Position numbers and translations under genes: made by a program. From an uncultured Rhizobium sp. (GTDB lineage: Bacteria; Pseudomonadota; Alphaproteobacteria; SMXQ01), in contig CAZVLU010000005.1 in assembly GCA_964628235.1 (NCBI GenBank), positions 16,296 through 80,295 on the forward strand: DNA of 64,000 nucleotides, read 5' to 3'. Of this stretch, positions 8,310 through 52,670 are shown piece after piece (position 1 is the stretch's first letter; each line of letters begins with the position of its first letter). The notes beneath the pieces are model-generated. The model was not told where the DNA came from, searched no databases, and worked only from the letters and a program-made list of their open reading frames with translations.

Positions 8310-8397
8310 GCCTGACGGCGGCCCGGCATCAACCGGGCCGCCGCAGATTCTCCGACTGGTTCTTGCAGGATGGCCGCGATTGCAGTCTTATCGGCGG

Positions 8398-8616
8398 ATG
8401 AGCACCGATTCCCTGACCCAACGCCTGATCGACATCGAGCATCGCCTCGCCCATAGCGAACGCATGACGGAGGACTTGTCCGCCATCGTCGCCAAGCAGG
8501 GCGACGAAATCTCGCTGCTCAACCAGAAGATCGCCGTGCTGACCCAGCGGCTGAAGGACAGCGCCGGGGCCTGGGATCCGTCGCCACGCGACAGCGAACC
8601 GCCGCCGCATTACTGA
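8398..8616 (+). CDS. slyX: SlyX family protein
   Basis: 73 aa coiled coil ending PPPHY as in E. coli SlyX. Confidence 0.8.
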   Translation: MSTDSLTQRLIDIEHRLAHSERMTEDLSAIVAKQGDEISLLNQKIAVLTQRLKDSAGAWDPSPRDSEPPPHY

Positions 8617-10070: not shown

Positions 10071-10259
10071 GGAACTCTCCGTTTAAATGACTGTTCCCGA
10101 TGCTAACGGCGCGGCAATCAAAATGCTGCGACGCAAAACATCCATCATAAAACGTCCATATCTATGGCAAAGACGATCACAACGTCGCGCGGGCAAGCGC
10201 GTCGCGCGTTCAATGCGGGTTTGAACGCGTCATCGATTCGGCAAGTTGTGAGTGAAAAT

Positions 10260-10336
10260 GGTCGGGACGATAGGATTTGAACCTACGACCCTCAGACCCC
10301 CAGTCTGATGCGCTACCAGGCTGCGCTACGCCCCGA
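10260..10336 (-). tRNA. tRNA-Pro (anticodon GGG)
   Basis: Reverse complement CGGGGCGTAGCGCAGCCTGGTAGCGCATCAGACTGGGGGTCTGAGGGTCGTAGGTTCAAATCCTATCGTCCCGACCA folds as cloverleaf; anticodon loop CTGGGGG; CCA end; coordinates hand-counted (+/-1). Confidence 0.85.
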
Positions 10337-12592: not shown

Positions 12593-13650
12593 TACGAGAC
12601 CGTCGCCTCTTGCGCCACGGGCACGACAGGAACTGCCGGCGTCAGCGCTTGCAGTTCATGCAGGATCTTGGCGTTGAAGCCGCCTGCCGCCATGTCGATG
12701 GCGACGCCGACAGCATTGGCGAAGCCGAACGCGTCGGTGCTGCCGTGGCTTTTGACGGCGATGCCGTTGAGGCCGAGGAACATCGCGCCGTTGTAGCGGC
12801 GCGGATCGAGGCGCGAGCGCAATTTGTTGAGCGCCGGGCGCGCCAGCAGATAACCCAGCATCGCCAGCAGCGAGCTGCGGAACGCGGCGCGCAGGAAGTT
12901 GGAGTAGAGCCGCGCCAAGCCTTCGGCGGTCTTGAGCGCGACGTTGCCGGTGAAGCCGTCGGTGACGACGACGTCGACCGCGCCGGCCCACACGTCGTCG
13001 CCTTCGACGAAGCCCTCGAACAGGATCGGCAGATTGCTGGCGCGGATCATCGCCGCGGCGTCGCGCAGCACGTCATGGCCCTTGAGGTCTTCCTCGCCGA
13101 CGTTCAACAGCGCGATGCGCGGCTTGACCATGCCGAACACGGTGCGCGCGAAGACTTCGCCGAGAATGGCGAATTGCGCGAGATTGTTGGCGTTGCAGGA
13201 AATGTTCGCGCCGAGGTCGAGCATGACGCTTTCGCCGCGTTGCGTCGGCACGATGGAGGCGATGGCAGGACGGTCGATGCCGGGCAGCGTTTTCAGCACC
13301 ACCTTGGCCATCGCCATCAGCGCGCCGGTGTTGCCGGCGGAGACGATGCCGGCGGCGTCGCCCGAGGCGACGGCGTCGATGGCGAGGCGCATGGAGGATT
13401 GCCGCGCGCTGCGCAGCGCCACGGAGGGCTTGTCGTGGTCGGAAACGGCGGCGTCGGTATGGCGGATCTCGCAGATATCCGCAGCGACCTTGTGACGCGC
13501 GAGCAACGGCTCAAGCTTCGCCTTGTCGCCGAACAGCAGGAAGCGCGCTTCGGGATGACGCTTATGGGCGATCTCGATGCCCTGAACGACCATGTCGGGG
13601 GCTTTCTCGCCCCCCATGGCATCGATCGCGATCGTCAAGCGCTCGGCCAA
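12592..13650 (-). CDS. plsX: phosphate acyltransferase PlsX
   Basis: 352 aa; AIDAMGGE...[12 protein letters not shown]. Confidence 0.9.
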
Positions 13651-15907: not shown

Positions 15908-17983
15908 TTAGGCGGCGAGCGCCAGCAGCAGCAGCGCCACGATGTTGACGATCTTGATCATCGGGTTGATGGCCGGACCGGCAGTATCCTTGTACGGATC
16001 GCCCACCGTGTCGCCCGTCACGGCAGCTTTGTGGGCTTCCGAACCCTTGCCGCCGAAGTGGCCGTCTTCGATGTACTTCTTGGCATTGTCCCACGCGCCG
16101 CCGCCCGAGGTCATCGAGATGGCGAGGAACAGGCCGGTGACGATCACGCCGAGCAGCATCGCGCCGAGCGAGGTGAAGGCCGCGGACTGGCCGGCGATCA
16201 GCATGATCACGAAATACAGGACGACGGGCGCCAGGATCGGCAGCAACGACGGGACGATCATTTCGCGGATCGCCGCCTTCGTCAGCATGTCGACGGCCTT
16301 GCCGTATTCCGGCTTGCCGGTGCCTTCCATGATGCCCGGGATTTCCTTGAACTGACGGCGCACTTCGACGACGACCGCGCCAGCGGCGCGGCCGACGGCG
16401 CGCATGCCCATCGAGCCAAAGAGGTAGGGCAACATGCCGCCGAACAGGAGGCCGATCACCACGAACGGATCCTGCAGACGGAAGGTCACCTGCAAGTTCG
16501 GGAAGTAGTGCGTCAGGTCTTCGGTGTAGGCGGCGAACAGCACGACAGCGGCCAGCGCGGCCGAGCCGATGGCGTAGCCCTTGGTCACGGCCTTGGTGGT
16601 GTTGCCGACGGCGTCGAGCGCGTCAGTCACCTTGCGGACTTCCGGCGGAAGCTGCGCCATTTCGGCGATGCCGCCGGCGTTGTCCGTCACCGGGCCATAA
16701 GCGTCGAGCGCCACGACCATGCCGGCCAGCGCCAGCATGGCGGTCGCGGCGATGGCGACGCCGAACAGGCCGGCCACCAGGTAGGAGCCGAGGATGCCGC
16801 CGCAGATGACGATCGCCGGCAACGCCGTCGATTCCATCGAGACCGCAAGGCCCTGGATGATGTTGGTGCCATGGCCAGTCTCCGCCGCCTTGGCGACGCT
16901 GACGACCGGGCCGCGGCCCGTGCCGGTGTAGTATTCGGTGATCCACACCAGCAGGCCGGTGACGACCAAGCCGATGAGAACGGCATAGACCAAGCTCAGG
17001 CCGGTGAAGGTCTGGCCGGCGACCGTGAACTGCGTCGCGAAGCCGATCCAGTAGTAGATCGCGGCGGCAACGAGACCAGCCGAAATCACGGCGCTGGCGA
17101 CGAAGCCCTTATAAAGCGCGTTCATGATGTTGTTGGTCGAGCCGAGACGCACGAAGAAGGTGCCGGCGATCGAGCCGACGATGCCGAGACCGGCGATCAC
17201 CAGCGGCAGCATCATCATGGTCGCCTGCGTGGCGCCGGTGAAGAAGATGGCGCCGAGCAGCATCGTCGCGACGATCGTCACGGCGTAAGTCTCGAACAAG
17301 TCGGCGGCCATGCCGGCGCAATCGCCGACGTTGTCGCCGACGTTGTCGGCGATGACGGCCGGATTGCGCGGATCATCCTCCGGGATGCCGGCTTCGACCT
17401 TGCCGACCAGATCGGCGCCGACGTCGGCGCCTTTGGTGAAGATGCCGCCGCCGAGACGGGCGAAGATCGAGATCAGCGAGGCGCCGAAGCTGAGCGCCAC
17501 GAGCGCTTCGAGGATCGTGCGGATTTCGAGGCCCATGCGCTGCAGCACGAAGTAATAACCGGTGACGCCCAGAAGACCGAGGCCCACGACCAGCATGCCG
17601 GTGATGGCGCCGGCCTTGAAGGCTAGAGCGAGCGCCGGCTTCATGCCGCTGCGCGCCGCTTCCGCCGTGCGATGGTTGCTGCGCACGGAGATATTCATGC
17701 CGATGTAGCCGGCGGCGCCGGACAGCACCGCGCCGATGACGAAGCCGATGGCCACGGTCAGACCGAGCTGCCAAAGCAATAAGACGGCGATGACGATGCC
17801 GACGATGCCGATAGTACGATACTGACGGTTCAAGTAGGCGGCGGCGCCTTCCTGAACGGCAGCCGAAATTTCACGCATGCGGTCGTTGCCGGTCGGTGCG
17901 GCAAGCACGGAGCGGCTGGCGAAGATGCCGTAAAGCACGGCGAGAACGCCGCAAGCAAGCACCACCCAATAAGCAGTCATCAC
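15908..17983 (-). CDS. hppA: K+-insensitive H+-translocating pyrophosphatase
   Basis: 691 aa polytopic protein; [33 protein letters not shown] motifs. Confidence 0.9.
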
Positions 17984-27831: not shown

Positions 27832-28111
27832 GGCAACCTCGGCTTTGAATCTGACGATGGGGCCGGGATAAGGACCCCGACAAGATGCGAGTATCCGCGC
27901 TTATTTCTTAATTTTTTCTTGCATACTCCGTAATGCAGCGGCTTTTGCCGAATCCGAGACGGGCACGGCAAGGCTCTGAGGCGCATGGCTTTATTGTAAA
28001 GATCGCCTGTCTTTTTGTATGTCATTGTATCTAATCAGAAAGCCAATAGCCTTAGGGGGATTATCGGCTAACTGTAGGTCATGTCTGACCTGTGTAGGTC
28101 ACTTTCTGCGC

Positions 28112-28144: not shown

Positions 28145-29284
28145 CTATTTTTCCACCGCCACGAGCTTGAATTTCCCCGATCGGATAGCTTCGATCATCG
28201 CCGCTTCGGTCTGGCTGTCGGGCGCCGTGGACTGCGAGATCTGATTTACCGCGTCGAGCGACGCCTTGGGGCAAAGGTGGCCGTAGGTCCGCTCGACCAT
28301 GTCGACCGACATTTCGAGGGTCTTCGACACGGTCCAAACCGAAACGCCATTTTTAAGCATGATCGTCGCCGCCGTGTGGCGCATGACATGCGGACTGACA
28401 TTCGGCACCTTGGCCTGCCGCGCCAGAGCCTTGAAATTTTTGTAGAGGTCTGCGTCGCTGTCGAGCACAAAGTCGGAAATGCGCTCCTTGTAGGCTTGCT
28501 CCAGCACGTTCCGCAGGGTGCGCGACATCGCCACGACGGCCCGTCGCTTCTTCGTTATCTTCCGCCCCGGCACGTTGTAGTCGATCATGCCGGCGGAAAA
28601 GTCGACGCGCGACCACTGGAGCTGTTGCACCGCCGTCTTGCGCGCGCCGGTTTCGCGCGTCAGCCAGTAAAAACGCTCGATCCGCGAGAGCCGGCCGTCA
28701 CGCCGGCGCGTCTTGATAGCGGCCGCCGCCAGGCGCTCCAGCTCTTCCGGCTCCAGCCAGCGCGCACGGGCTGCGTTTTTCGGCGGGAGGTCGAAGGCGG
28801 GCACGTCGCCCGCCGGTATGAGCTTGCGTTTCCGGTCTGCGCACCAATTGAACATGGCGACCAGCATGAGCAATTCGCTCCGCACGGTCGAGCGCATGAC
28901 GCCCGAGCTGGAGCCGAGCTTGCCGCTGACGCGCTTATCCTCGTAGGCGTCGACGGCGTCCTGATTGACCTCCGGGTAGAGCAGCCGGCCGAAGTGCCTT
29001 TTCAGTCGGCGCCCGACGCGGCGGAGCGGCCCGATCGAGAGCGAGTTTTTTTCCAGGTGCTTCTTCTCGTAGACGTCCCAAAGATCTTCGACCGTGTAGA
29101 CATCGCTTGGGGCTGCGCCCTGCCCCATCAAGAGCCACTGGCCGAAGAAAGCCTTCGCAGCGCCCAAATCCTTCGTGCGCGTGCTGACGCGCTTGCTGCG
29201 TCCTCGTTTGCCCTTGGGGCTTGGTTCGGTCCAGTGAACGTACTGGACGCCGTTTTTGTCGGGCTTGAGGTAGGGCGCTGACAT
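28145..29284 (-). CDS. tyrosine-type site-specific integrase
   Basis: 379 aa; C-terminal catalytic region HVMRHTAATIMLKNGVSVWTVSKTLEMSVDMVERTYGHL. Confidence 0.9.
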   Translation of the reverse strand: MSAPYLKPDKNGVQYVHWTEPSPKGKRGRSKRVSTRTKDLGAAKAFFGQWLLMGQGAAPSDVYTVEDLWDVYEKKHLEKNSLSIGPLRRVGRRLKRHFGRLLYPEVNQDAVDAYEDKRVSGKLGSSSGVMRSTVRSELLMLVAMFNWCADRKRKLIPAGDVPAFDLPPKNAARARWLEPEELERLAAAAIKTRRRDGRLSRIERFYWLTRETGARKTAVQQLQWSRVDFSAGMIDYNVPGRKITKKRRAVVAMSRTLRNVLEQAYKERISDFVLDSDADLYKNFKALARQAKVPNVSPHVMRHTAATIMLKNGVSVWTVSKTLEMSVDMVERTYGHLCPKASLDAVNQISQSTAPDSQTEAAMIEAIRSGKFKLVAVEK

Positions 29285-29442
29285 TTCTTCACAGCCTCCT
29301 TGTATATTTCAAGATCCTCGGATTCGATCTTCGGCGGGCGGCCCGGCAGATACGCCAAAAGCCCGGCCAGGCGCAGGCGCTTGACCGTCGAGACCGAACA
29401 ACGAAGCTCTTTAGCGACTTCCGTTTCCGTCAATAGCGGCAT
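29128..29442 (-). CDS. excisionase / AlpA-like HTH DNA-binding protein
   Basis: Internal start MPLLTETEVAKELRCSVSTVKRLRLAGLLAYLPGRPPKIESEDLEIYK (HTH_17-like); 3' part overlaps integrase start, true stop/extent uncertain. Confidence 0.5.
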   Translation of the reverse strand: MPLLTETEVAKELRCSVSTVKRLRLAGLLAYLPGRPPKIESEDLEIYKEAVKKCQRPTSSPTKTASSTFTGPNQAPRANEDAASASARARRIWALRRLSSASGS

Positions 29443-29899
29443 CGTCGGCCTGCAACAGCTCGGCGACCTTGAGCGCCGTGGTGAGATAAACGAGTTTGTT
29501 GACGCGGAGGAACGCGAGGTTCGGCGCCGTGCTGCTCGCCTTGACCTCGAAGGCGGCAACGGCCGCTTCCGGCGTTTGGCTGGCGTCGTCTGCGAAGCGA
29601 ATGCCTCGATTGTAGCGGGTGGGCTCCAGCTCCTCGGGCTTCATGTCGAAGACCTTCGCCAGCTTCTCAAGGTTTTCGTCGTCCGGCAGGACGGCCGCGC
29701 GGATATAGGTCGAGATGGCCGCGCGCTGAATGTCAGCCCGGCGTGCCAATTCGCTTTGGTGCCAGCCCTTGCTGACCATCAGCTTGTAGAGACGCCGACT
29801 AAATTCCTTTTTCGCCGTCTGTTTAGCTGAAATGCGATCTTTCGCGCTCGCATCAGCTAACTCGTTTTCCCCGGTGCGGGAGCGAGGTTTTCTAGCCAT
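29411..29899 (-). CDS. XRE-family (Cro/CI-type) repressor-like protein
   Basis: HTH: LYKLMVSKGWHQSELARRADIQRAAISTYIRAAVLPDDENLEKLAKVFDM; divergent from a Cro-like gene. Confidence 0.7.
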   Translation of the reverse strand: MARKPRSRTGENELADASAKDRISAKQTAKKEFSRRLYKLMVSKGWHQSELARRADIQRAAISTYIRAAVLPDDENLEKLAKVFDMKPEELEPTRYNRGIRFADDASQTPEAAVAAFEVKASSTAPNLAFLRVNKLVYLTTALKVAELLQADDAAIDGNGSR

Positions 29900-30006
29900 C
29901 TTTTCGGCTCCAAACGATTAATTAAGTATGTCTGTTGTATATCTTAAAACAGGCGCTTGCAAGACAATTTGTCTGCATCCTCTTGACGCGCTACAGGGGC
30001 GGTTCT
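29900..30006. promoter_or_regulatory. divergent lysogeny-switch promoter/operator region
   Basis: AT-richer intergenic region between repressor (-) and Cro-like (+) genes containing tatgtctgttgtatatc and aatttgtctgcatcctcttgacg. Confidence 0.5.
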
Positions 30007-31365: not shown

Positions 31366-31464
31366 CGTTGTATGTCGGTTGTATGATGCTGACAGACACC
31401 GCCAGACGTTTTGTTCCTGCTTTCACGCTTTCCGGCTCTACCGAGGCCCACCTTGCCCGCACCA

Positions 31465-37652: not shown

Positions 37653-37915
37653 GCGGGCAAACGCTCGATGGGCTATTCGCCGACATGGCGGCGAACGGGC
37701 TCCAACTCGTCGGCTTGAACGAGCTGGACAACGGCCAGTGGCACGCCGCCTTGAAAGAAAAAGGCAGCGACTACAGCAAGCTCGACGGCTTCGACCACCA
37801 ACGCGGCAAAACCGCTGTGGAAGCCGTCGCGCGGGCTCTCAAAGAGGCCGGAACCGCACGCGCCGAGCGCGCCCCGGCGCCGCCGGCCAAAGCAAGCGCG
37901 GGCGTCTTTGACTAA
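37649..37915 (+). CDS. hypothetical phage protein
   Basis: 88 aa; ATGA overlap with upstream stop. Confidence 0.35.
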   Translation: MSGQTLDGLFADMAANGLQLVGLNELDNGQWHAALKEKGSDYSKLDGFDHQRGKTAVEAVARALKEAGTARAERAPAPPAKASAGVFD

Positions 37916-38247
37916 TGCCTGTCTCGGCTCGGATCATGCGGGCGCGCGGCCTTGCCTGCCCCTACTGCGGGCAGCGGATGGACGGGCGCAAGCGCAAGCA
38001 CCGCAACAGTCCGAGCCGAGATCACGTCTACCCGAGGAGCAAAGGCGGCCGCCGAACAATTATCGTCTGCAACGGTTGCAACAGCGACAAAGGCAACCTG
38101 ACGCTCGACGAGTGGGCGCTGATCCTCCTGCGGCGTCGAGATCGCCGCGCTCAATTCGTCATGTTCATAGCGCGCGGCCTGACCGACGGCCGGTTGCGTC
38201 TCACGACCGGAAATGTCATCGGCCTCGCCGACGGGGTGTTCGCATGA
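37915..38247 (+). CDS. HNH endonuclease
   Basis: CPYCG...RDHVYPRSKGG...CNGCNSDKGN. Confidence 0.75.
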   Translation: MPVSARIMRARGLACPYCGQRMDGRKRKHRNSPSRDHVYPRSKGGRRTIIVCNGCNSDKGNLTLDEWALILLRRRDRRAQFVMFIARGLTDGRLRLTTGNVIGLADGVFA

Positions 38248-38690
38248 TCCTCGGCAGAGACGAACGCGGCCGTTTCCTGGGGCGTTGGACGAACGACCCG
38301 TTCGACCCGCGCGGCTGGCCGCCCGACGAGGAATGCCGGATCTGGCTCGACCCGGAAAACGGCATCTTCTGCGTCGTCGACGAGGTCGATTTTCAATGGG
38401 CGCTGCAATGGGCCTGGAGCGCGACGCCGAACAGCACGCGCCTCAAGTGGTATGCGACGCGCTCGACCCGCCTCCGCGGCTCTGACGGCCCCCAGGTCAA
38501 AGTCTACCTGCACAAAGAAATTCTGCTCCGCCATGCCGGGCCGGCGCCGAGCGAGAAACATATCATCGGCGATCACCTCGACGGCGACAGTTTGAACGAC
38601 CGTCGCGGCAACCTGCGATGGGCGACGCCAAAAGAGAACCGCCACAACCGGGGCGGCGCGTATCTGCGCCAGCTTCAAATGAGGGTCTGA
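38244..38690 (+). CDS. HNH (HNH_3-type) homing endonuclease
   Basis: VYLHKEILLR...IIGDHLDGDSLNDRRGNLRWATPKENRHN. Confidence 0.7.
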   Translation: MILGRDERGRFLGRWTNDPFDPRGWPPDEECRIWLDPENGIFCVVDEVDFQWALQWAWSATPNSTRLKWYATRSTRLRGSDGPQVKVYLHKEILLRHAGPAPSEKHIIGDHLDGDSLNDRRGNLRWATPKENRHNRGGAYLRQLQMRV

Positions 38691-38906: not shown

Positions 38907-39602
38907 TTGATCGAAATTCTTCAAGGCGACTGCCTGGCGGAGATGAAAAAGCTTCCCTCCGACAGCGTCGATGTCGTCGCAACAGACCCGCCGTTCTCCA
39001 GCGGAACGCGGAAAGAGGGCGCGAAGGGCCTGCGTAAAAGCATGAGGCGCGGCGTCGCCAGCAATGCTTGGTTCGGCTCCGACAGTCTCACGACAAATGG
39101 CTTTCTTTGGCTCATGCGGTCGTGCGCCGTCGAGTGGCAGAGACTTCTAAAGCCAGGCGGTCACGCGCTTGTTTTTATCGACTGGCGCATGATGTCGGCT
39201 CTTGCCGGCGCGCTAGAAAGCGCCGATCTGCGCCACGCCGGACTCCTCGTATGGGACAAAACCTATTTCGGGATGGGAACTACCTTTAGAAATCAGCATG
39301 AGCTGATCCTACACTTCACGAAAGGCGTCCCGCCGGAGCCTGCGCGGCGCGATGTCGGGAACGTGCTCGCCTTCAAGCCCATACGCAACGGCCTCCACCC
39401 GACGGAAAAGCCGACAGAGCTTTTAGTCGAATTGCTCTCCGTCGTTGCTTTCAAAGGCGCGGTCGTCTTAGACCCCTTCGCCGGCTCCGGCGCTACGCTG
39501 GTCGCAGCGCAGCGTCAAGGTTGCAGCGCCATCGGCATTGAGCGTGAACAGCACTACGTCGACATCATGCGAAAGCGAACCGCAGGAGACGTTTTCGCAT
39601 GA
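38907..39602 (+). CDS. site-specific DNA methyltransferase (N6-adenine/N4-cytosine, beta class)
   Basis: TTG start; GDCL; catalytic DPPF; AdoMet motif DPFAGSGAT. Confidence 0.85.
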   Translation: MIEILQGDCLAEMKKLPSDSVDVVATDPPFSSGTRKEGAKGLRKSMRRGVASNAWFGSDSLTTNGFLWLMRSCAVEWQRLLKPGGHALVFIDWRMMSALAGALESADLRHAGLLVWDKTYFGMGTTFRNQHELILHFTKGVPPEPARRDVGNVLAFKPIRNGLHPTEKPTELLVELLSVVAFKGAVVLDPFAGSGATLVAAQRQGCSAIGIEREQHYVDIMRKRTAGDVFA

Positions 39603-41755: not shown

Positions 41756-41774
41756 GTGTCTTTTGTATGTCTAT

Positions 41775-41815
41775 TTTGTATGTTGACAAGTGACATACAT
41801 CGGACATATAGTCCT
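41775..41815 (+). promoter_or_regulatory. sigma70-like promoter embedded in palindromic operator
   Basis: TGTATGTTGACAagtgACATACA (TTGACA -35 inside inverted repeat) followed by TATAGT. Confidence 0.45.
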
Positions 41816-43820: not shown

Positions 43821-44125
43821 GACAGCCCGTGACATACCGCCGGCGCGCGCCGAAGACGCCAGGGCTGCACGACGAAGTGCGGATCTCGCTCAACGACGTC
43901 CACCTAGCGCACCGCGAGGCGGCTCTCGTCGCCGGCATGATGGCCGGCCACTGTCGAAAGCGGCCGCTGCTCGAATTTATGTTCGGCGCCGACAACCGCG
44001 TCAGCGATCGCTACCTCCGCGAGCTGGTGGGGCGCACCCGTAAGCGCCTCGCCGGGTCCGGCTTCACCATCACCGACTACGAACCCCGCGGCTACGCGAT
44101 CATTCTGGAGGCCAAGACACCATGA
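43817..44125 (+). CDS. hypothetical phage protein
   Basis: 102 aa coupled ORF. Confidence 0.35.
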   Translation: MRQPVTYRRRAPKTPGLHDEVRISLNDVHLAHREAALVAGMMAGHCRKRPLLEFMFGADNRVSDRYLRELVGRTRKRLAGSGFTITDYEPRGYAIILEAKTP

Positions 44126-45960
44126 AGCGTAAAATTCTAGTGGCGGATCTGCTCTGCGGCGCGGGCGGCTCCTCGACCGGCGCGGCGCAAGCGCTCGTCG
44201 AGCTTGGCCTCGATATGGAGCTGGTCTGCGTCAATCACTGGAATGTCGCGATCGAGACCCACAAGGCGAATCACCCGCACGCCCGGCATTACTGCCAGGA
44301 CATATCGACTGTCCGGCCGCACCTTGTGGTGCCCGAGGGCTATCTCGACCTGCTCATGGCGAGCCCCACCTGCACGCACCACTCCGTCGCGCGCGGCGGA
44401 AAGCCGACCAGCGACCAGCAGCGCTCCGACCCTTGGCATATCATAACCTGGCTGACCGAGCTGCGGGTCAAGCGAATCATGATCGAAAACGTATGGGAGT
44501 TCGTGAAGTGGGGTCCGGTCGACCCGCGCAGCGGCAAGCCCATCAAGTCGCGGCAGGGCGAATACTTCAACGCCTGGATCGAGACCATGCGCCGGCTAGA
44601 CTTCGAGCTGGAGTGGCGCAAGCTGAACGCGGCCGACTACGGCGAAGCGACGACGCGGCAGCGCTTCTTTCTCCTCGGCCGCAGCGACCGCAAGCGTATC
44701 GCCTGGCCCTCGCCGACGCACACGAAGCGGCAACCCGAAGCGCCGGCCGGTCTGCACCCTTGGCGGCCGGCGCGCGAGATCATCGACTGGAACATCAAGG
44801 GCCGGTCGATCTTCACGCGCAAGAAGCCGCTCGCGCCGAAGACCCTCGCGCGGATCTATGCGGGCGCCGTCAACCTTCAATGGCCCGAGCCGTTCCTCGT
44901 CATCTTGCGAAACCATATGGGCGCGCAATCCGTCGACGCGCCGTTGCCGACTGTGGCGGCGAACGGAACGCATATCGGCCTGGCGCAGCCCGTCGTCATG
45001 AACGGCCGGAAGGGCTCGAAGGCCAAAGGCGTAGAGACAGCGCCGATCCCGACGCTCGACACCAAGGGCGGCGTATGGCTCGCAGAGCCGGCGCTGATCG
45101 CCACGGCCCACGGAAACGCCGCGACGGAGAAGAACCCGAACAAGCGGCGCGCCAAAGGCGTCAGCGAGCCCTTGGGGGCGATCCACGCGAGCGGCGGTAA
45201 CTTCGCCGTCGCCGAGCCTCTGATCCTCTCGCAGCAAGCCAGCGGTCGGCCACGTTCGGCCGAGGAGCCGCTACCGACGATCTTGACCGGCGGCGCCGGC
45301 ACGGCGGAGCGGCCGGGCTGCGCGCGTCACGCTGTCGTGCAGCCTTTCGTCCTGTCCCGGCTCGGAAACGGCGCGCCCCGCCCGACCGACCAGCCGACGC
45401 CTACGCAGGTCGCGACGCACAGCCACGTTCTAATCGCGCCTTACTACAGCAGCGGCTCGGGCGAAACGTGCAAGAGCGCCGACGTGCCGCTCTCCTCCCT
45501 GACGACTAAGGCGCGCTTCGGCATGGTCATCCCCGTCACGCACAGCGGCGACGAGAGCAACCGCTCGCGCGACGTCGAGACCGACGGCTTGCCGACCGTA
45601 ACGGGCGCCAATCGCGGCGAGCTGGCTTTTATAACAGCCGCCTTCGGCGAGCGCGAAGGGCAGGCCCCGCGGGTTCATGATCTCGGAGAGCCGGCGCCGA
45701 CGATCTGCGCGACCGGCGGCAGCGTCAACCTGGTCGAGCCGACAGAGAGCTACGACATTCTATTTCGGATGCTCGAACCGCATGAGCTGGCGGCCGCGAT
45801 GGGCTTCAACGACGAAGACGCGACATACGCATTCAGCGGAAACAAGACCGAGCAGATAAAGCAAATCGGAAATGCCGTGTCCGTCCGGCAGTCAAAGGCC
45901 CTCGTCAAAGCGATGCTGGCCGACAGCGCCGAGCCGAGCAAGGCGGAGCGAGCGGCGTAG
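44122..45960 (+). CDS. DNA (cytosine-5)-methyltransferase
   Basis: Motif I LLCGAGGSS, catalytic-Cys region ASPTCTHHS, ENV motif IMIENVWEF, motif X IGNAVSV; long variable region. Confidence 0.8.
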   Translation: MKRKILVADLLCGAGGSSTGAAQALVELGLDMELVCVNHWNVAIETHKANHPHARHYCQDISTVRPHLVVPEGYLDLLMASPTCTHHSVARGGKPTSDQQRSDPWHIITWLTELRVKRIMIENVWEFVKWGPVDPRSGKPIKSRQGEYFNAWIETMRRLDFELEWRKLNAADYGEATTRQRFFLLGRSDRKRIAWPSPTHTKRQPEAPAGLHPWRPAREIIDWNIKGRSIFTRKKPLAPKTLARIYAGAVNLQWPEPFLVILRNHMGAQSVDAPLPTVAANGTHIGLAQPVVMNGRKGSKAKGVETAPIPTLDTKGGVWLAEPALIATAHGNAATEKNPNKRRAKGVSEPLGAIHASGGNFAVAEPLILSQQASGRPRSAEEPLPTILTGGAGTAERPGCARHAVVQPFVLSRLGNGAPRPTDQPTPTQVATHSHVLIAPYYSSGSGETCKSADVPLSSLTTKARFGMVIPVTHSGDESNRSRDVETDGLPTVTGANRGELAFITAAFGEREGQAPRVHDLGEPAPTICATGGSVNLVEPTESYDILFRMLEPHELAAAMGFNDEDATYAFSGNKTEQIKQIGNAVSVRQSKALVKAMLADSAEPSKAERAA

Positions 45961-45983: not shown

Positions 45984-46538
45984 ATGGCCGGCTTTAGTTT
46001 TCAAACGCGCGTTCGGGCCTGGATGCTGCATTGCTTCAACGCCGAGATCGCGGCCGACAAGCTGACGCGCAATTTTCGTTTCCTCGAAGAAGCGATCGAG
46101 CTGGTGCAAGCCTGCGGCTGCACGGCGACAGAAGCGCACCAGCTCGTCGACTACGTCTTCGGCCGCCCGATCGGCGACCCGCCGCAGGAAGTCGGCGGCG
46201 TCATGGTCACGCTGGCGACGCTATGCGACGCGCAAGGCATCGACCTCATGGTCTCGGCCGAGACCGAGCTTGCGCGGATCTGGAGCCCCGAGGTCGTGGC
46301 GAAGATCCGCGAGAAGCAGGCAACGAAGCCGAACCACTCGCCGTTGCCGGGGGCAAGCGGCCGAGACGCCTGGTCGGCGGCACAGATCCGCAGCCGCATC
46401 AAGCACCTCGACAGGAAGATAGCCGGCGCGCAAGCCTGGGGCTCGGCGCTAGGCGCGATGGACGAAGAGCGCACGGAGTTACAAAAGCGCCTCAACGCCA
46501 TGACGAAGCCCCTCGCCGAGCCGCAGGAACGCGCCTAG
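45984..46538 (+). CDS. hypothetical protein (possible MazG-like NTP pyrophosphohydrolase)
   Basis: FLEEAIELVQA...EA.QLVDYVF...E.GGVMVTLATLCDAQGIDL pattern; tentative. Confidence 0.4.
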   Translation: MAGFSFQTRVRAWMLHCFNAEIAADKLTRNFRFLEEAIELVQACGCTATEAHQLVDYVFGRPIGDPPQEVGGVMVTLATLCDAQGIDLMVSAETELARIWSPEVVAKIREKQATKPNHSPLPGASGRDAWSAAQIRSRIKHLDRKIAGAQAWGSALGAMDEERTELQKRLNAMTKPLAEPQERA

Positions 46539-46579
46539 AATGGCGGCCCCCACCACCCGAGCAAGGCCGCCGTCGCACC

Positions 46580-46888
46580 GTGGAGCCGAGCGAAGTCTAC
46601 CCGATCGAAAGCGGCATCCCGATTCCGCCTCGAAAATACGGCATCGACGCTCCGAAGCCCGCGCGCGTCCCGCGATCGCCGCTTCGCCAACGGCCAAGCC
46701 GGCGGCGCTACCCTTTCATGGATCTGCACGTCGGCGAGAGCTTTGTCGTGCCGTTCGGCGACGAGCACCCCTACATGGTGCAGAACCGCCTGACGGGCGC
46801 CATTCGCTCCTGCAACCGTCGTCATGGGCTCTGCTTCACGACACGCCTCGTGGAGCGCGGCGTGCGCATTTGGCGGGTCGCCTGCTAG
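46580..46888 (+). CDS. hypothetical phage protein
   Basis: C-terminal part of the 46031 track ORF beyond upstream stop; GTG 46580 or ATG 46718 possible. Confidence 0.3.
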   Translation: MEPSEVYPIESGIPIPPRKYGIDAPKPARVPRSPLRQRPSRRRYPFMDLHVGESFVVPFGDEHPYMVQNRLTGAIRSCNRRHGLCFTTRLVERGVRIWRVAC

Positions 46889-47046: not shown

Positions 47047-49272
47047 ATGACGAAAACCGCAGCGTTTAGCAAGTTCTGGTCTCTCGGCTTCCGCTCGCTC
47101 GTGCCGATCACGCCGCCGGGCGCGGCCGTCTCCGAGAAATCGACACTGGCGAAACGACCGGGCTCGATCGGCAAAGCCGTCGGGATTCGGGGCGGAGATG
47201 GGCTCTGGCGCGGCTTCGATTGGGTCAAGCATCATACATCGGCGACAGACATCGAGGCATGGGCCGAGATGGGCGCCGGCGTCGGCATCCGCACGGGCGA
47301 CGGCATCATCGCCATCGACGCCGACACCTTCAACGCGAAGTATGTCGAGGAGATCGCCAAGGCGGCGAAGGCGCTGCTCGGCGACGCGCCCGTGCGCATC
47401 GGCAACCCACCTAAATTCCTTCTGCTCTACGCCGTCTCCGAGCCCGTGGCCTATCAGCGCGTGCTGTTCGACGACGGGCTGCCGTTCCGCCCTGGCGCCG
47501 AGCCGCGCGTCGAGATGCTGTCGGACGGCCGGCAGTTCGTCGCCGACGGTATCCACCCCTCCACCGGCAAGCCCTACACCTGGCCGGGCCGCGGGCTGTG
47601 GCCCCGCGACAAGCTCACCACCGTCACGCCGCAACAGCTCAACGCCTTCTTCGCCCGCCTCACCGAGATCCTGCCGGCAGCCGCGCGCGTCGAGACGACG
47701 GCAGCCAACGACCGCAGCAACATCGACCAGGCGTCGCTGGAAGGTGACAGCAAGACCGTCGAGGCCGCCGTGCGCGCCCTCCCCAACACCACCGAGCTAT
47801 TCCCGACCTATGACGACTACATCCGCGTCGGCGCCGCCATCAAGGGCGCGGCGCAGGGTCTCCCCGATCACGGTCTCGCCCTCTTCCTCGAATGGGCGGA
47901 GCGCTGGTCGGGCGGCAACGACCTGGAGCGCGCGGCGGCCGACTTCGCCCGGATCAAGCCGCCTTACGAGCTTGGCGCGCGCTGGCTCTACGAGATGGCC
48001 GACAGCCACGGCAAGGGCGCGTTCCGCCATGCCGACGTTTGGTTCGAGCCGCTGGCCGAGGTCGAGCTAAATCCCTTTGAGGCCGCCCGCCTCAAGCAAG
48101 CCGAAGAGACGCGCATCGAGCCGATCCGCTGGATACGGCCGAGCGAGTGGAAGGGCCGCACGCCGCCGGATCGCGAATGGGAGGTGGAAGGCTGGATACC
48201 CAAGGGCGAGGTGACGCTGCTCTACGGCGACGGCGGCATCGGCAAGACCCTCCTGGCCCACCAATACGCCACAGCGGCCGCGGCGGGCGTCTCATGGCTC
48301 GGGCTGAACACCCGGCAAGCCAAGGTCATGTGCTTTTTCTGCGAAGACAGCGAGGCCGAGCTGCACCGCCGGCAAATCGACATCAACAACGCCCTCTGCC
48401 TCGACTACGACCAGGCCGACGCCAATCTGCGCATCGCCAGCCGCAAGTACATGGACAACCTGTTCATTCTTTGGGACCGCAACACGGGGGCGATGAAGCG
48501 GCAAGCCGTATGGGCGCAGCTCCTAGAAGACGCCGTCGCCTTCGGCGCGGAGGTCATCGTCGTCGACACCATCGCCGACACCTACGGCGGCTCCGAGATC
48601 GACCGCGGCCAAGTCAACGCTTTCGTGAAGTCCTGCCTCGGCCGGCTCGCCTCCGAGATCCAAGGCTCGATCATCGCCCTCGGGCACCCGTCGATCGCCG
48701 GCAAGACAGAAGGCCGATCCGGCAGCACCGCCTGGAGCAACGCCGCGCGCTCGCGCCTGTTCCTGCGCTACCCGAAGAACGTCGAGAAGGGCGACATTCG
48801 CGAGCTGGAGGGCATGAAGCTGAATTACGGGCCGAAGGGCTCGCTGCTCAAGCTCCAGTGGAAGCGCGGCGCGTTCGACGTGCTGGCCGGTTCGACGGCG
48901 GGCACGGTCCATCTAAACGCCTTGAACGACCCCAAGACAGCGCCCGCCTTCGAGCGCATCGAGGATATGGCCGAGCGCGCCGTGCTCGCCGCCGTGGCGG
49001 CCGCCGAGGCGGAAGGCGTCGCGCTCGGGGCGTCCTCGCGGTCGCCCGTCTACGCGCCGCGCGTGCTCAAGCAGCGCGAGCCGGAAGCGCTGGCCGTCTA
49101 CACGGCCGAAGAGGTCGAGACGGCGCTAAGGAGCCTAGAACGGAGGGGGCTTGTTCAAGCCAAAGAGGTTGCGCGCCGTGGCAACCGTCACCCCGTCATG
49201 GGCTATGCCGTCGTCCGGCAAAAGCCGGAAGCGGCGGACAATCTGTCCGAAGGGTCGGGCGTTTTCCAGTGA
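47047..49272 (+). CDS. bifunctional primase-polymerase (Prim-Pol) / RecA-like helicase-loader replication protein
   Basis: N-terminal GAGVGIRTGDGIIAIDADT Prim-Pol motif; central Walker A LLYGDGGIGKT (AAA_25-like), Walker B VIVVDTIAD. Confidence 0.85.
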   Translation: MTKTAAFSKFWSLGFRSLVPITPPGAAVSEKSTLAKRPGSIGKAVGIRGGDGLWRGFDWVKHHTSATDIEAWAEMGAGVGIRTGDGIIAIDADTFNAKYVEEIAKAAKALLGDAPVRIGNPPKFLLLYAVSEPVAYQRVLFDDGLPFRPGAEPRVEMLSDGRQFVADGIHPSTGKPYTWPGRGLWPRDKLTTVTPQQLNAFFARLTEILPAAARVETTAANDRSNIDQASLEGDSKTVEAAVRALPNTTELFPTYDDYIRVGAAIKGAAQGLPDHGLALFLEWAERWSGGNDLERAAADFARIKPPYELGARWLYEMADSHGKGAFRHADVWFEPLAEVELNPFEAARLKQAEETRIEPIRWIRPSEWKGRTPPDREWEVEGWIPKGEVTLLYGDGGIGKTLLAHQYATAAAAGVSWLGLNTRQAKVMCFFCEDSEAELHRRQIDINNALCLDYDQADANLRIASRKYMDNLFILWDRNTGAMKRQAVWAQLLEDAVAFGAEVIVVDTIADTYGGSEIDRGQVNAFVKSCLGRLASEIQGSIIALGHPSIAGKTEGRSGSTAWSNAARSRLFLRYPKNVEKGDIRELEGMKLNYGPKGSLLKLQWKRGAFDVLAGSTAGTVHLNALNDPKTAPAFERIEDMAERAVLAAVAAAEAEGVALGASSRSPVYAPRVLKQREPEALAVYTAEEVETALRSLERRGLVQAKEVARRGNRHPVMGYAVVRQKPEAADNLSEGSGVFQ

Positions 49273-49470
49273 TTCGCGCTGCGTCAAGCTGCGTCGAGCT
49301 TCCTTGCAAGTCATTGATTTTGCTTGCGTCGAGCTTCGGCGGTTGTATGGCTGCGTCAAGCTGCGTCAAGCTGCGTCAAGCTTCCACGCAAACCATTGAG
49401 ATAAAAGAAAATTGGTGCTGTGCGTCAAGCTGCGTCGGGGTTCTGCGTCAAGCTTCACCCCTAAAGGGGG
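49273..49470. repeat. iteron array (putative phage replication origin)
   Basis: 8-9 copies of (C)TGCGTCRAGC within 200 bp incl. a 3x perfect tandem, AT-rich core gagataaaagaaaattgg, immediately 3' of primase gene. Confidence 0.7.
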
Positions 49471-49572
49471 AGGGCGCGGGCTTCGCCGCCCGCTCGCCGC
49501 CGCCCTCTCCCCTGGGGTCTTGGGCGCGGGGCTTCGGACAAATTGTCTTAGCAACGGCCGAGACCAGGCCCC

Positions 49573-49600
49573 AATAAAAAGGCCCGCCGATCATGGCGGA
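49573..49600 (-). terminator. rho-independent terminator of the antisense operon
   Basis: minus strand: CCGCCatgatcGGCGGgcctttttatt. Confidence 0.5.
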
Positions 49601-49679
49601 CCTTGCTGTCGTTTGTAGAGCCAGGCAGCGAGCCGCCCGGCATAGATGGCAGGGAGCGAGACCAGCCCGCAGAGCCCGG

Positions 49680-49949
49680 CTAAGGCGAGGAGCCAGAACA
49701 GCATGGACGCCCCCCTAGCTTTTCCCATTGCAGGCGGTCGTATTCCGCCACAAGCCTAGGCGAGCCGCGACCGATGGCGGGGCGCGTCGCGTAGGCGTTC
49801 TCTATCGCGAGCATGGCGAAGGCGACGCCTTCGGGGTCTTTCTTGGCGTTCTCCGCATTCTGGCTTGTCGGGTAGGCGTAGACAGTCGCGCCTGTCTTCG
49901 TGTCGCCGCAGACGAACGCGCCGTCGGGCATGAGCTTGTGCAGGATCAT
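49680..49949 (-). CDS. hypothetical protein
   Basis: 89 aa, last gene of antisense operon. Confidence 0.35.
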   Translation of the reverse strand: MILHKLMPDGAFVCGDTKTGATVYAYPTSQNAENAKKDPEGVAFAMLAIENAYATRPAIGRGSPRLVAEYDRLQWEKLGGRPCCSGSSP

Positions 49950-49953
49950 GGCG

Positions 49954-50643
49954 CTAGTCCTCTTCGGGGAAGCTGTCGGATTGCTCGCCCCGCTCGTGCT
50001 GATAGCGCGCCAGTCCGGCGGCCAGCTCGTCGCTTGTGGCGAGACGCCAGCCGTCGGGCAGGTTCTCCGCTCCGTCGTCGCCGTCGACGGTTTCGTCTTC
50101 GGGGTCTAGCTCTGCGTCGAAATTGCCGCGCGCCGATTCGAGAGCTTCGTCGAAGGGCTGCAAGTCGTCGACGCGCGCCAGGTGCATGAGATCGCAAAGC
50201 AGGTCGCGGAGGTGGCTTTCGTCGGGTTGTGGATCGCCGAGGGCGGCCCGATAGGCTTCGAGAGCCGCGCGGGCGCGCTCGGCGCGGTCTTCGTTCGTCG
50301 GCTCGCTTGTGAGAGGTTGCCGCGCGGCCGCTTCTAATTCGTCGTCTGTGTTTTCCTCCGTCGCGTCGGCTGCGGCTGACACCAGCGCGGCGGCCGCTGC
50401 GTCGGGCTGCGTGCCCTGCCCTTGCATGATCGCGGGCGTGGCGTCGAGATTGATATGCTCGCAAAGCTCGTCTATTTCGTCCGGGCTTAGGGGCTTGTCG
50501 TGATCGCCGTTGGCGATATCCCAAATCATGCGTTGTTGCGCCTTAGAGGGTGAGCTGCGCCGCTGGTGCCAGTGTTGCCAGAAGCGAAGCGCCGCAAGTG
50601 TGGTGTCGCGTTGGCGTTCGGATATTTCCAGGTCGATTTGCAT
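49954..50643 (-). CDS. highly acidic hypothetical protein
   Basis: Start moved to MQIDLEISERQ (RBS aaggacag); ~25% D/E. Confidence 0.5.
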   Translation of the reverse strand: MQIDLEISERQRDTTLAALRFWQHWHQRRSSPSKAQQRMIWDIANGDHDKPLSPDEIDELCEHINLDATPAIMQGQGTQPDAAAAALVSAAADATEENTDDELEAAARQPLTSEPTNEDRAERARAALEAYRAALGDPQPDESHLRDLLCDLMHLARVDDLQPFDEALESARGNFDAELDPEDETVDGDDGAENLPDGWRLATSDELAAGLARYQHERGEQSDSFPEED

Positions 50644-50654
50644 GATGGCTGTCC

Positions 50655-51089
50655 TTATGGCTGTGTGATCGGGGCGGCCGCGAGGTAGAGCCGCAGGGCG
50701 TCTAGCTCTTCGTGGCTGTCGAGGTATTCGCCTGCCGCGATGTTGGCGTCGGCAGCGTGGCGGCAAGCGCCGTCGAGGTGCGCGAGACATTCGGCGCGAT
50801 GGGCTTCGCTCTGGATCTTCGCGGTTGACGCGAAGGCGTAGAGGCAGAGCCCCGGATCTGTGTCGTTGATGTAAGACGCCCATTCGTGCGCGGCCGCGCT
50901 GGCTTCCTGCGCCGACAAGATCGGGTAAGCCCCGATTTTGGCGAGAGCTGTTTTCAGCTCGATAACGCGGGCGTCTAGCATTTCCTGCGTCGGGAAGCCT
51001 TCTTGGTTCGCCGCGTCCTGCTCGCACCATTCGAGGGCGCTTTTAAGTGCGGCGACGGTCTCCGCGCCAGGGTTGATTTCTTGCTGCAT
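50655..51089 (-). CDS. hypothetical protein
   Basis: 144 aa, coupled in antisense operon. Confidence 0.45.
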   Translation of the reverse strand: MQQEINPGAETVAALKSALEWCEQDAANQEGFPTQEMLDARVIELKTALAKIGAYPILSAQEASAAAHEWASYINDTDPGLCLYAFASTAKIQSEAHRAECLAHLDGACRHAADANIAAGEYLDSHEELDALRLYLAAAPITQP

Positions 51090-51155
51090 CGCTTGTGCTC
51101 CTTGTCCGGTCGAGAGGCAGAAAGGCGCGGCGCTACGGGGCGCCGCGCCAAGCGG

Positions 51156-52028
51156 TTAGGCCGCTTTGAGTTTCTGCATCTCGGCCGCGAGGGTCCAAAG
51201 GGCGCGGTTCAAGGCGACGTTGCCGTCGATACCGTTGACGGGGCGCGTCTGGCGACGCGCGACGCGGCGGCCGTTGGCGTCGCGCTGGACGTAGTCGAGA
51301 CCGCCGCGCACCAAGTTTTCCTGTGCGCGGTTGAACGTCCGCCACAGGTCATTGCCCGCGTCTTCGCGCCGGCGGGGTGCGTTGATGAGAGCCGGCGCGA
51401 TGGGCGCTTTGCCTTCCTCGAAGCGAAGCTCGGCCGCGGCGGCCGCGAAGGCTTCCTGCTCGCCAGGGTGCAATTCGATCGCGCGCATTTCGGCGACGCT
51501 GGCGTCGATCCGCGCGCCGTCTTCGATCACGCGATATGCGCCTTCGATCACTTGGCCGACGATGTCGCCTTTGTGCGGAATGCGGATCGACTGCATTTCG
51601 CCTTCGCAGACCACCAGGCCATTCGAGCAGACCATGCGGAAAAGCCCGCTCATGAGCTGGTAGGACGACGTTCCGTCGTGGCTGTTGAGCATGACCACTT
51701 CGCGCAGGCTGTCGCCGACAGTGACGGAGTCGGCGCGGCGGAAGCGGATGAGGTGCTTGGTAAAGCCCCGCTTTTCTTCGCTGCGCGAGCCGCCCTGCCG
51801 CACCTCATAGGGGAAAAAGCCCTCGTTGCGCAGGCCCGCGAGCACTTCGCGCGTCGGGATATAGGTGTATTTCTCGCTGCGGCTGTCGTGCTTGTCTTCG
51901 GCGAAGACCGAAGGGGCGACGCGCGCGATTTGCTCATCGTCGAGTGCGTCGCGCGAGCGAAGGATCGCGCCGCCCGCGCCAAAGCGAGAGATGCGACCAG
52001 AGCCAGAGGTCATGACGTTTGCATACAT
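51156..52028 (-). CDS. DUF932 (phage/plasmid-related) protein
   Basis: ~290 aa; YTYIPTREVLAGL...MLNSHDGTSSYQLMSGLFRMVCSNGLVV pattern typical of DUF932/TIGR03299. Confidence 0.7.
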   Translation of the reverse strand: MYANVMTSGSGRISRFGAGGAILRSRDALDDEQIARVAPSVFAEDKHDSRSEKYTYIPTREVLAGLRNEGFFPYEVRQGGSRSEEKRGFTKHLIRFRRADSVTVGDSLREVVMLNSHDGTSSYQLMSGLFRMVCSNGLVVCEGEMQSIRIPHKGDIVGQVIEGAYRVIEDGARIDASVAEMRAIELHPGEQEAFAAAAAELRFEEGKAPIAPALINAPRRREDAGNDLWRTFNRAQENLVRGGLDYVQRDANGRRVARRQTRPVNGIDGNVALNRALWTLAAEMQKLKAA

Positions 52029-52087
52029 TGGAGAGCCTTTCCGTTGTGCCCGCTTCGCGGACTGTTCAAAGGCGGGCGTTCCCGTCT

Positions 52088-52145
52088 CTGTATGGCTGTT
52101 GTATGCCTGTTGTATGTCTGTCGTCAACCGCCTTGATTGACAAAA
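52088..52145. promoter_or_regulatory. divergent promoter region with triple TGTTGTATG direct repeat
   Basis: ctgtatggcTGTTGTATGccTGTTGTATGtctgtcgtcaaccgccTTGATTGACAaaaa. Confidence 0.45.
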
Positions 52146-52211
52146 ATTTGCCGAGTAGGCGCGGAGGTGCTAAGGCTATTAGCGCCAATGGGTTACGGCG
52201 GAGGGCAAGGA

Positions 52212-52670
52212 ATGCCAGATCAGCGAGGGCGCAAGACGCCACAAGAAAGCCTCTTCGTTCAGGCGATGGCGGCCACGAATGACGCTGTGTTTTCGGCCCG
52301 TGAGGCCCAATACGCCCACCCCGCGCAACGTGCGCACGATTTAATGAAGCGGCCCGCGATTGTCGCGGAAGTGCTGCAATTGCAGCAGGAACGGCTGTTT
52401 AACGAGATTCTGCCGCTCGCCGTTGAGGTGCATAAGGCTCTCTTGCTCAATCCCGCGACGCCAGCGGGCGCGAAGGTGCGCGCCGTTGAGTTGGCGTATG
52501 ATCGGGCGTTCGGCGCGGAGGGTGCGGCCAGCGGCAAGCAACCGCACGAAATGACGGCCGATGAGCTGGCGCGCGAGCTGGATCGGCTCAAGAGCGAAGC
52601 GGCCGCGCGCGCTCGCCCCGTGATCGAGGGCACGGCCGAGACCGTCGAGGAGCCGGGCGTTTTCGCCTAG
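52212..52670 (+). CDS. terminase small subunit-like protein (Terminase_2-like HTH)
   Basis: TPQESLFVQAMAATNDAVFSAREAQYAHPAQRAHDLMKRPAIVAEVLQLQQE matches KLTPKQE.F...GNATQAA..AGYS...A...LLKNP.V TerS N-domain; RBS ggagg. Confidence 0.55.
   Translation: MPDQRGRKTPQESLFVQAMAATNDAVFSAREAQYAHPAQRAHDLMKRPAIVAEVLQLQQERLFNEILPLAVEVHKALLLNPATPAGAKVRAVELAYDRAFGAEGAASGKQPHEMTADELARELDRLKSEAAARARPVIEGTAETVEEPGVFA

Follow-up and report, generated by a model that had tools for sequence, protein, structure and literature searches.

A DUF932-led antisense cassette of small acidic proteins in a rhizobial temperate phage, a candidate establishment or counter-defence unit

In the leading regions of conjugative plasmids, the DUF932 proteins (YubP/UPF0380/YafZ, PF06067) rank as family 3, the third-largest, with 4661 members, a false discovery rate (FDR) p = 0 and a median position of 1 from the origin of transfer, oriT (Samuel et al. 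2024, PMC11541004, supplementary file 3, 'Top 100 leading region families'). The same file gives the family a tentative anti-restriction label, which is based on one structural match, to P1 Hdf, and the study also counts DUF4942 methylases and DUF5983 among the leading-region families (PMC11541004). In the F plasmid the DUF932 gene lies beside oriT and traM, and in both F and pSurvcare220 it adjoins oriT in a region that also carries ParB, psiB, ssb or psiA, hok, DNA methylases and an antirestriction gene. Here, we describe a minus-strand operon headed by a DUF932 gene in a prophage of an uncultured Rhizobium sp. It occupies positions 49591 to 52028 of a stretch of 64,000 nucleotides (the window: positions 16,296 to 80,295 of the forward strand of contig CAZVLU010000005.1, assembly GCA_964628235.1). 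A preliminary description, made from the letters alone, had taken it for a candidate anti-restriction or anti-defence island. Our preferred interpretation, which we hold tentatively and with somewhat less than even confidence, is that of an accessory establishment or counter-defence unit in a conserved slot of a temperate phage, with the replication module on one side and the packaging module on the other.

A DUF932-led operon in a conserved slot

The operon is tightly packed and runs on the minus strand from 52028 to 49591. It lies between a Prim-Pol/AAA_25 primase-helicase gene (47047-49272, plus strand), with its iteron-bearing origin, and a small-terminase-like gene (52137-52670, plus strand, a weak assignment), and is antisense to both flanking modules. 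Its main open reading frames (ORFs), all on the minus strand, encode proteins of 290 amino acids (aa; 51156-52028), 144 aa (50655-51089), 229 aa (49954-50643) and 89 aa (49680-49949), separated by intergenic gaps of 66, 11 and 4 nt. That these are four genes, as first described, is borne out by a third-position G+C content (GC3) of coding type, 0.74-0.81 against 0.44-0.67 in the overlapping alternative frames, by the Shine-Dalgarno-like sequences that precede each of them (for the 89-aa ORF, with GC3 0.79, GAGGA 9 nt upstream), by their spacing and by the NCBI records, which hold exactly the 290-, 144-, 229- and 89-aa products. We amend the count to five, as a 45-aa single-helix membrane peptide (49591-49728, minus strand) is probably encoded by a further gene of the operon. 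This ORF shares 49 nt with the 89-aa gene and extends into the terminator, and its product reaches a Kyte-Doolittle 19-residue maximum of 2.2; its ribosome-binding site (RBS) is weak and it is not called by NCBI. The operon does have its own intrinsic terminator, as had been claimed, a minus-strand hairpin at 49604..49579 (49579-49604) with a 10-bp stem containing 7 G-C pairs, a 6-nt loop and the tail TTTATTGGGG. A DNA-level search of the cassette against INPHARED phages gave no match, and neither did Rfam (E≤1) between 48800 and 52800.

The product of the lead gene matches PF06067 over profile positions 1-227 of 227 (E 1.9e-47, 162.4 bits versus a cut-off of 23), which confirms the DUF932 identity first assigned. 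It resembles YubP (the F plasmid 'gene 32'), YafZ and YfjQ of UPF0380 in this full-length Pfam match and in the motifs NSHDG, FRxVCSNG and IRH, and also in its place on a mobile element, ahead of a series of small accessory genes. Its identity to the enterobacterial, mostly plasmid-borne members is 45-51%. Unlike YubP, the prophage gene lies in a temperate phage, antisense between replication and packaging modules, with no adjoining oriT. The TTG start at 52127 initially given to it is replaced by the ATG at 52028, which yields the operon form of 290 aa, in keeping with homologue lengths of 286-306 aa and with the 290-aa record. Two longer readings, a 323-aa TTG-start DUF932 and a 358-aa extended form of the acidic 229-aa ORF, were rejected on RBS position, homologue lengths and NCBI calls.

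H92, N115, C134, N136, G137, H152, D223, Q236 and E237 are invariant both in 62 close homologues and in 38 diverse loci whose identity falls to 31%, and H117 and D118 are invariant in the former and at least 90% conserved in the latter. The invariant His, Asp, Cys, Asn and Glu positions suggest enzymatic activity or metal binding. The invariant CSNG loop (residues 133-139) is the sole segment of the structural model with a predicted local distance difference test (pLDDT) score below 50, amid invariant His and Asp; it might form a flexible loop of the active site. Searching PDB by sequence gave no match to the 290-aa protein.

The primase (54% and 48% identity) led to two related phages, and the polymerase, the terminase and a 177-aa protein are also common to both. 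In L130, of the same phage type as L134, an antisense DUF932 gene, 66% identical to ours, occupies the same slot, divergent from the homologue of the 177-aa protein and convergent with the primase gene; six or seven small genes unrelated to the cargo described here follow it in L130/L134. The L129 slot also contains small antisense genes in a row, but no DUF932. All three phages end the cassette with a hydrophobic single-helix peptide of 40-51 aa (51 aa in L129, at 12648-12803, and 40 aa in L134, at 8281-8403) and a hairpin with a T-run terminator, and the 45-aa peptide is weakly similar to that of L129 (pairwise E 0.002). The slot is conserved and its cargo is variable, since two related phages have an antisense cassette there, one of them DUF932-led, with differing cargo.

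Three less related phages (L002, L133 and L135) likewise have DUF932 in front of a series of small ORFs. In two of them, L002 included, these ORFs belong to an early operon with RecT or ERF and YqaJ, and those of L002 adjoin a small gene of DNA-binding type. Together with the leading-region survey (PMC11541004), these loci agree with the earlier statement that DUF932 proteins are typical of plasmid leading regions and phage early regions. Some partners of DUF932 recur in such cassettes. A 'TPGPW...AAAPELLEAL' protein (Phage_P22_Y8K6, PF27050) is often present (L133, 6979-7425; L134, 7979-8284; L002, 7006-7296), and the L133 cassette also has a small GerE/sigma-70-region-4 helix-turn-helix (HTH) protein. 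Both are absent from the prophage cassette analysed here.

Modular acidic proteins and their association with DUF932

The 229-aa protein has an isoelectric point (pI) of 4.20, 24% D+E and a net charge of -36, so its extreme acidity, remarked upon in the preliminary description, is real. It consists of an N domain, an acidic linker, an M domain and a short C-terminal LPDGW motif, and about half of its net charge is located in the linker and tail. A word-indexed search with the whole protein recovered only itself. A HMMER search against 1.84 billion representatives gave 349 matches at E≤1e-3, which fall on residues 1-66 or 113-183. A tblastn search of phages and plasmids, probably hampered by the shortness of the domains and by the low-complexity filter, gave no match.

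The N domain (residues 1-66; 50446-50643, minus strand) is a three-helix unit with the motifs T.LAALR.WQ and EID.LCE.IN. The M domain (residues 113-183; 50095-50307, minus strand) is another three-helix unit, with the motifs PTN.DRA.RA and DLL.DLMH, and corresponds to phrog_3963, which matches residues 103-180 at E 1.6e-10; D37, H44 and E68 are invariant in its alignment. Both domains are mostly found as stand-alone proteins of 60-100 aa, and tandem copies also occur. Most members of phrog_3963 stand alone at 65-100 aa, whereas the prophage version is fused to the N domain and to the C-terminal motif. Elsewhere, the two domains also occur in one polypeptide, with N or M first (P0004, P0006), or as the products of adjacent genes (L119, L094), and in P0103 N is fused to DUF5983. 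Stand-alone M proteins have a median pI of 4.31 and a median net charge of -11 on about 80 aa, N proteins have a median pI of 4.72, and acidity is a family property of both. The C-terminal mini-motif LPDGWRLATSDELAAGL (residues 195-211; 50011-50061, minus strand) weakly matches a 106-aa protein in the L129 antisense cassette (pairwise E 3e-4 over 17 aa), a match that is suggestive only.

The AlphaFold2 (AF2) model of the 229-aa protein is all-helical (pLDDT 74.6, predicted template-modelling score (pTM) 0.35), with two three-helix bundles, further helices and low-confidence acidic linkers. A Foldseek search with this model, whose pTM is low and whose domains are small, found no fold match (best E 1.1 in PDB and 0.087 in BFVD). 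Sequence searches of PDB with phmmer and profiles gave nothing below E 0.07 for the protein, and no match for the N and M profiles. A Pfam scan for ArdA and Ocr (E≤0.1) returned a sub-threshold HAMP match only, with no ArdA, Ocr or KlcA. Among the five products, Pfam, NCBIfam and PHROGs show no family match to ArdB/KlcA, ArdC, PsiB, SSB or other named leading-region functions, and fold searches added none, in line with the initial remark that nothing in the operon matches a named anti-defence family. The suggestion that this could be a new family must be qualified, because two of the domains belong to existing uncharacterised families, one of which is phrog_3963. A scaffold or structural role for the acidic protein, the possibility that the preliminary description had itself raised against its proposal, is rejected on genomic context: the gene is outside the structural module and the relatives of its domains are in early or replication contexts.

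The other products are less widespread. The 144-aa protein is also acidic (pI 4.47, net charge -14), and a rare domain, which takes up its C-terminal ~90 aa, carries the motif W..G..LYAFAST..QS..H.A. A word search of 5.8 billion proteins found only the protein itself, and it has no match in Pfam, PHROG, NCBIfam, PADLOC or PDB. Its domain type is common to ~236-aa proteins on three large phage contigs (L063, L065 and L073), each 1-3 kb from an N-domain gene; a profile of the domain recovered only the contigs already found, and hhalign comparisons found the N, M and 144-aa-type domains mutually unrelated. The 89-aa protein has no family or PDB match and forms a single-member cluster in the protein collection, and scans of IMG/VR and metagenomes found no relatives of either it or the 144-aa protein. 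The 45-aa peptide was considered as a Hok-type type I toxin, and Pfam and Rfam gave no hok/sok match.

The N domain also lies near DUF932 elsewhere. Among 70 IMG/VR loci anchored with the N-domain profile, a divergent DUF932 is the neighbour family with the highest locus count, within 3 kb in five of the 70, and in L072 the two genes overlap by 4 nt and are translationally coupled. The 144-aa-like domain is a neighbour in three of these loci and the M domain in two, and further recurrent neighbours are ParB, RadC, DUF4942 methyltransferase, C5 methylase and HNH. Four more loci have an M-domain gene ~1-4 kb from DUF932. Two are enterobacterial (L051, L054), one is a metagenomic element with genes for a beta clamp, a DUF4942 methylase and ParB as well (L141), and the last is the leading region of the IncF plasmid pSurvcare220 (L136). 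In the latter, the M gene (E 3e-12) sits between an N6 methylase gene and DUF932, with ParB, psiB, psiA and hok nearby. YubO of the F plasmid was considered as an M-domain protein and rejected. Judging from these neighbourhoods, the acidic protein draws its domains from the loose guild that also includes DUF932.

The prophage cassette thereby resembles the leading-region anti-defence islands of Samuel et al. 2024 (PMC11541004) in DUF932/YubP, in the M domain of pSurvcare220, in its small uncharacterised proteins and, through its relatives, in the neighbours DUF4942 methylase, ParB and DUF5983. A link to leading regions was found for two of its families only, by enrichment for DUF932/YubP (PMC11541004) and by a protein of pSurvcare220 for the M domain. 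The cassette differs from these islands in being without conjugative transfer or oriT, and none of their validated members ArdA, KlcA, PsiB, SSB and Acr is in the operon.

Control region, origin and prophage setting

The divergent control region (52029-52136) separates the DUF932 gene on the minus strand from the small-terminase-like gene on the plus strand. It contains two 11-bp direct repeats, TGTTGTATGCC and TGTTGTATGTC, at 52097-52118, with exact copies of TGTTGTATG at 52097 and 52108, and a plus-strand TTGACA follows at 52137, 20 bp after the repeat pair. Other 11-bp tandem repeats are found at the same spot in related phages. The preliminary description had assigned the repeats to a divergent promoter of the operon itself. 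The two repeats are indeed exact; their attribution to the antisense operon is doubtful, as the motif is found on the plus strand only. Allowing one mismatch or fewer, the TGTTGTATG-type (TTGTATG-type) motif has 11 copies in the window versus 3.1 expected, and 11 of the 11 are on the plus strand. Tandem pairs, 11-13 bp from start to start, occur upstream of plus-strand blocks at 31366-31385, where the pair precedes the helicase gene, at 41761-41782, where it directly precedes a near-consensus TTGACA-N17-TATAGT promoter, and at 52097-52116; single copies are at 28013, 29933, 49341, 53870 and 57976. Because all copies are on the plus strand and the tandem pairs lie upstream of plus-strand blocks, the repeats are more likely binding sites for a factor governing rightward transcription than the private promoter of the antisense operon, although they might also influence the latter. 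The motif is a candidate phage activator or temporal-class signal.

A second motif, the palindrome GACAAWWTGTC, occurs three times versus 0.17 expected. One copy (29963-29973) separates the CI-like repressor gene from the first rightward genes, and the two others (49237-49247 and 49537-49547) flank the iterons. It is probably a repressor or Cro operator, and its position on both sides of the iterons would then imply direct control of the origin. The origin-like region itself (49237-49547) extends between the stop of the primase-helicase gene and the cassette terminator. It holds nine copies of the iteron TGCGTCAAGCT with a 10-bp periodicity (49280-49456), as well as the A/T-rich patch GATAAAAGAAAATT. 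Inverted copies of a 16-nt repeat (49237-49252 and 49532-49547) enclose it.

The G+C content of the window is ~64%, and the temperate phage occupies it from ~28 kb onward. An integrase gene (28145-29284) and a CI-like HTH repressor gene (29411-29899), both on the minus strand, lie at the left end of the prophage. After the repressor follows a plus-strand series encoding resolvase, helicase, exonuclease, gp2.5-like SSB, HNH, DNA methylase, DNA polymerase A, a second methylase and the primase-helicase. To the right of the cassette come, in order, the small-terminase-like gene, a gp49-like gene, tail fibre, endolysin, large terminase and major head protein, and the window stops within the head genes. 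Apart from the cassette, all prophage genes between 30264 and 64000 are on the plus strand, so the claim that these are the only minus-strand genes of the prophage body holds. A 96-aa minus-strand ORF between two plus-strand genes (46535-46825) has borderline coding statistics (GC3 0.71) and is probably spurious; if real, the cassette would lose its status as the sole antisense unit of the prophage body. The sole tRNA gene, for tRNA-Pro with a GGG anticodon (10259-10335), is 18 kb from the integrase gene and thus not an obvious attachment site. Two apparently orphan DNA methyltransferases (38907-39602 and 44122-45960; phrog_67 and phrog_116) and the HNH gene (37908-38690) are the more obvious anti-restriction measures of the phage.

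A possible counter-defence role and its alternatives

The support for an establishment or counter-defence role comes from association, in that early regions of phages and leading regions of plasmids repeatedly combine these families. Of the original proposal, this link with guilds of leading-region and early accessory genes survives, and DNA mimicry lacks support. Under the counter-defence reading, the cassette would be a single minus-strand transcription unit, led by DUF932, with small, very acidic helical proteins and a membrane peptide as cargo. Most likely, the small acidic domains would neutralise proteins of the host by binding them, for example factors of defence or DNA processing, and DUF932 would act on the incoming or replicating DNA of the element or on a host factor. 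The exchange of cargo between related phages is as would be expected of arms-race genes. The anatomy of the operon, its homologies, the modular build of the acidic protein, the conserved slot and the repeated co-occurrence of the families are direct results; we infer the counter-defence function, protein binding as its mechanism and early expression after infection or induction. A broader version, in which N, M and the 144-aa-type domain each represent an undescribed family of small acidic inhibitors and form, with a DUF932/YubP enzyme, a portable counter-defence toolkit across temperate phages, large phages and conjugative-plasmid leading regions, is more doubtful.

Several observations weigh against this reading. 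No protein of the operon matches an experimentally defined anti-defence family in sequence or fold, and no validated anti-defence gene is in or adjoining the operon, the nearest candidates being the two orphan methyltransferases of the early region, at a distance of 3-11 kb. The 144-aa and 89-aa proteins, both near-orphans, offer no basis for judging conservation. A scan of the minus strand for sigma-70-like promoters detected none, and GACAAWWTGTC is absent from the control region of the cassette, so lysogenic repression may not cover it. The background for the co-occurrence of families is rough rather than rigorous, the frequency of DUF932 near random phage genes having been estimated from PHROG sizes. 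On this estimate, the enrichment behind these co-occurrences would be at least tenfold.

Finally, a terminator of its own and an orientation opposed to the surrounding prophage genes are also classically seen in a moron that the lysogen expresses. The main alternative is a lysogenic-conversion cassette, transcribed in lysogeny and of benefit to the lysogen through superinfection exclusion or defence, with the membrane peptide as candidate effector. We regard it as unlikely. The cassette is like phage morons in its own terminator, in its orientation independent of the flanking operons and in a cargo that differs between close relatives (L129, L130/L134) in which the flanking primase and terminase-like genes are kept. 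The small membrane peptide retained at the operon end and the control region devoid of the likely repressor/Cro site fit this reading too. It differs from morons in that the slot and its frame, i.e. the leading DUF932 gene and the terminal membrane peptide, are themselves conserved. Moreover, six proteins gave no match to PADLOC defence models (E≤0.01), and elsewhere DUF932 heads early operons or enters the conjugation recipient first, which suggests a role at entry.

A recent study of Variovorax bears on the same choice. In populations exposed to phage, loss-of-function DUF932 alleles in an integrated plasmid exceeded 70%, and a start-codon mutation, which according to the authors truncates the protein, reached 50-60% (bioRxiv 10.1101/2025.06.20.660599). 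The authors read DUF932 as defence-related (bioRxiv 10.1101/2025.06.20.660599), which would favour the moron. Yet, the selection of such mutations under phage pressure, the start-codon one included, is the opposite of what is expected of a defence gene. The sweep is compatible with a resident anti-defence gene that weakens host immunity. It is the sole experimental hint that we found, and other explanations for it exist.

Just as unlikely, in our view, is that the cassette helps the establishment or replication of the DNA rather than countering immunity. DUF932 would then process or bind the ends of the element DNA near the origin, and its acidic partners would influence host proteins of replication or recombination (beta clamp, SSB, RecA-type). 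The cassette does adjoin the origin and has replication and recombination neighbours elsewhere, but an essential role in replication is made less likely by L129, which has this replication module and no DUF932.

The weakest alternative, suggested in the preliminary description, is that the 229-aa protein is a DNA mimic akin to Ocr (T7 gp0.3) or ArdA that blocks type I restriction enzymes, and we consider it improbable: small acidic helical DNA mimics exist, and the protein shares with Ocr and ArdA a very low pI, a strongly negative charge (-36, and about -11 on the ~80 aa of stand-alone M) and carriage by a mobile element, but it has no Pfam, PDB, PHROG or fold match to anti-restriction families, and where Ocr and ArdA are single rigid mimics its model comprises several independent small helical bundles on low-confidence acidic linkers, which with the tail hold about half of the charge. 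Charge-based mimicry by the small M domain is possible.

Cassettes of this kind are already known, and what the present one adds is a compact operon that joins DUF932 to two domain families lacking models. In F-type plasmids no gene lies closer to oriT than that of DUF932/YubP, which is therefore first into the recipient, and the family is among the largest uncharacterised ones of leading regions. The prophage operon physically links it to two widespread small acidic domains without a Pfam model and to a rare third domain. It thus offers a small, testable set of constructs for DUF932 activity and for the inhibition of host immunity by N- and M-type domains. If the acidic domains do inhibit immunity, the signature of DUF932, N, M, DUF4942 methylase and ParB/RadC could be used to mine counter-defence genes. 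If these families do form a portable toolkit, the operon would provide the first functional handle on DUF932.

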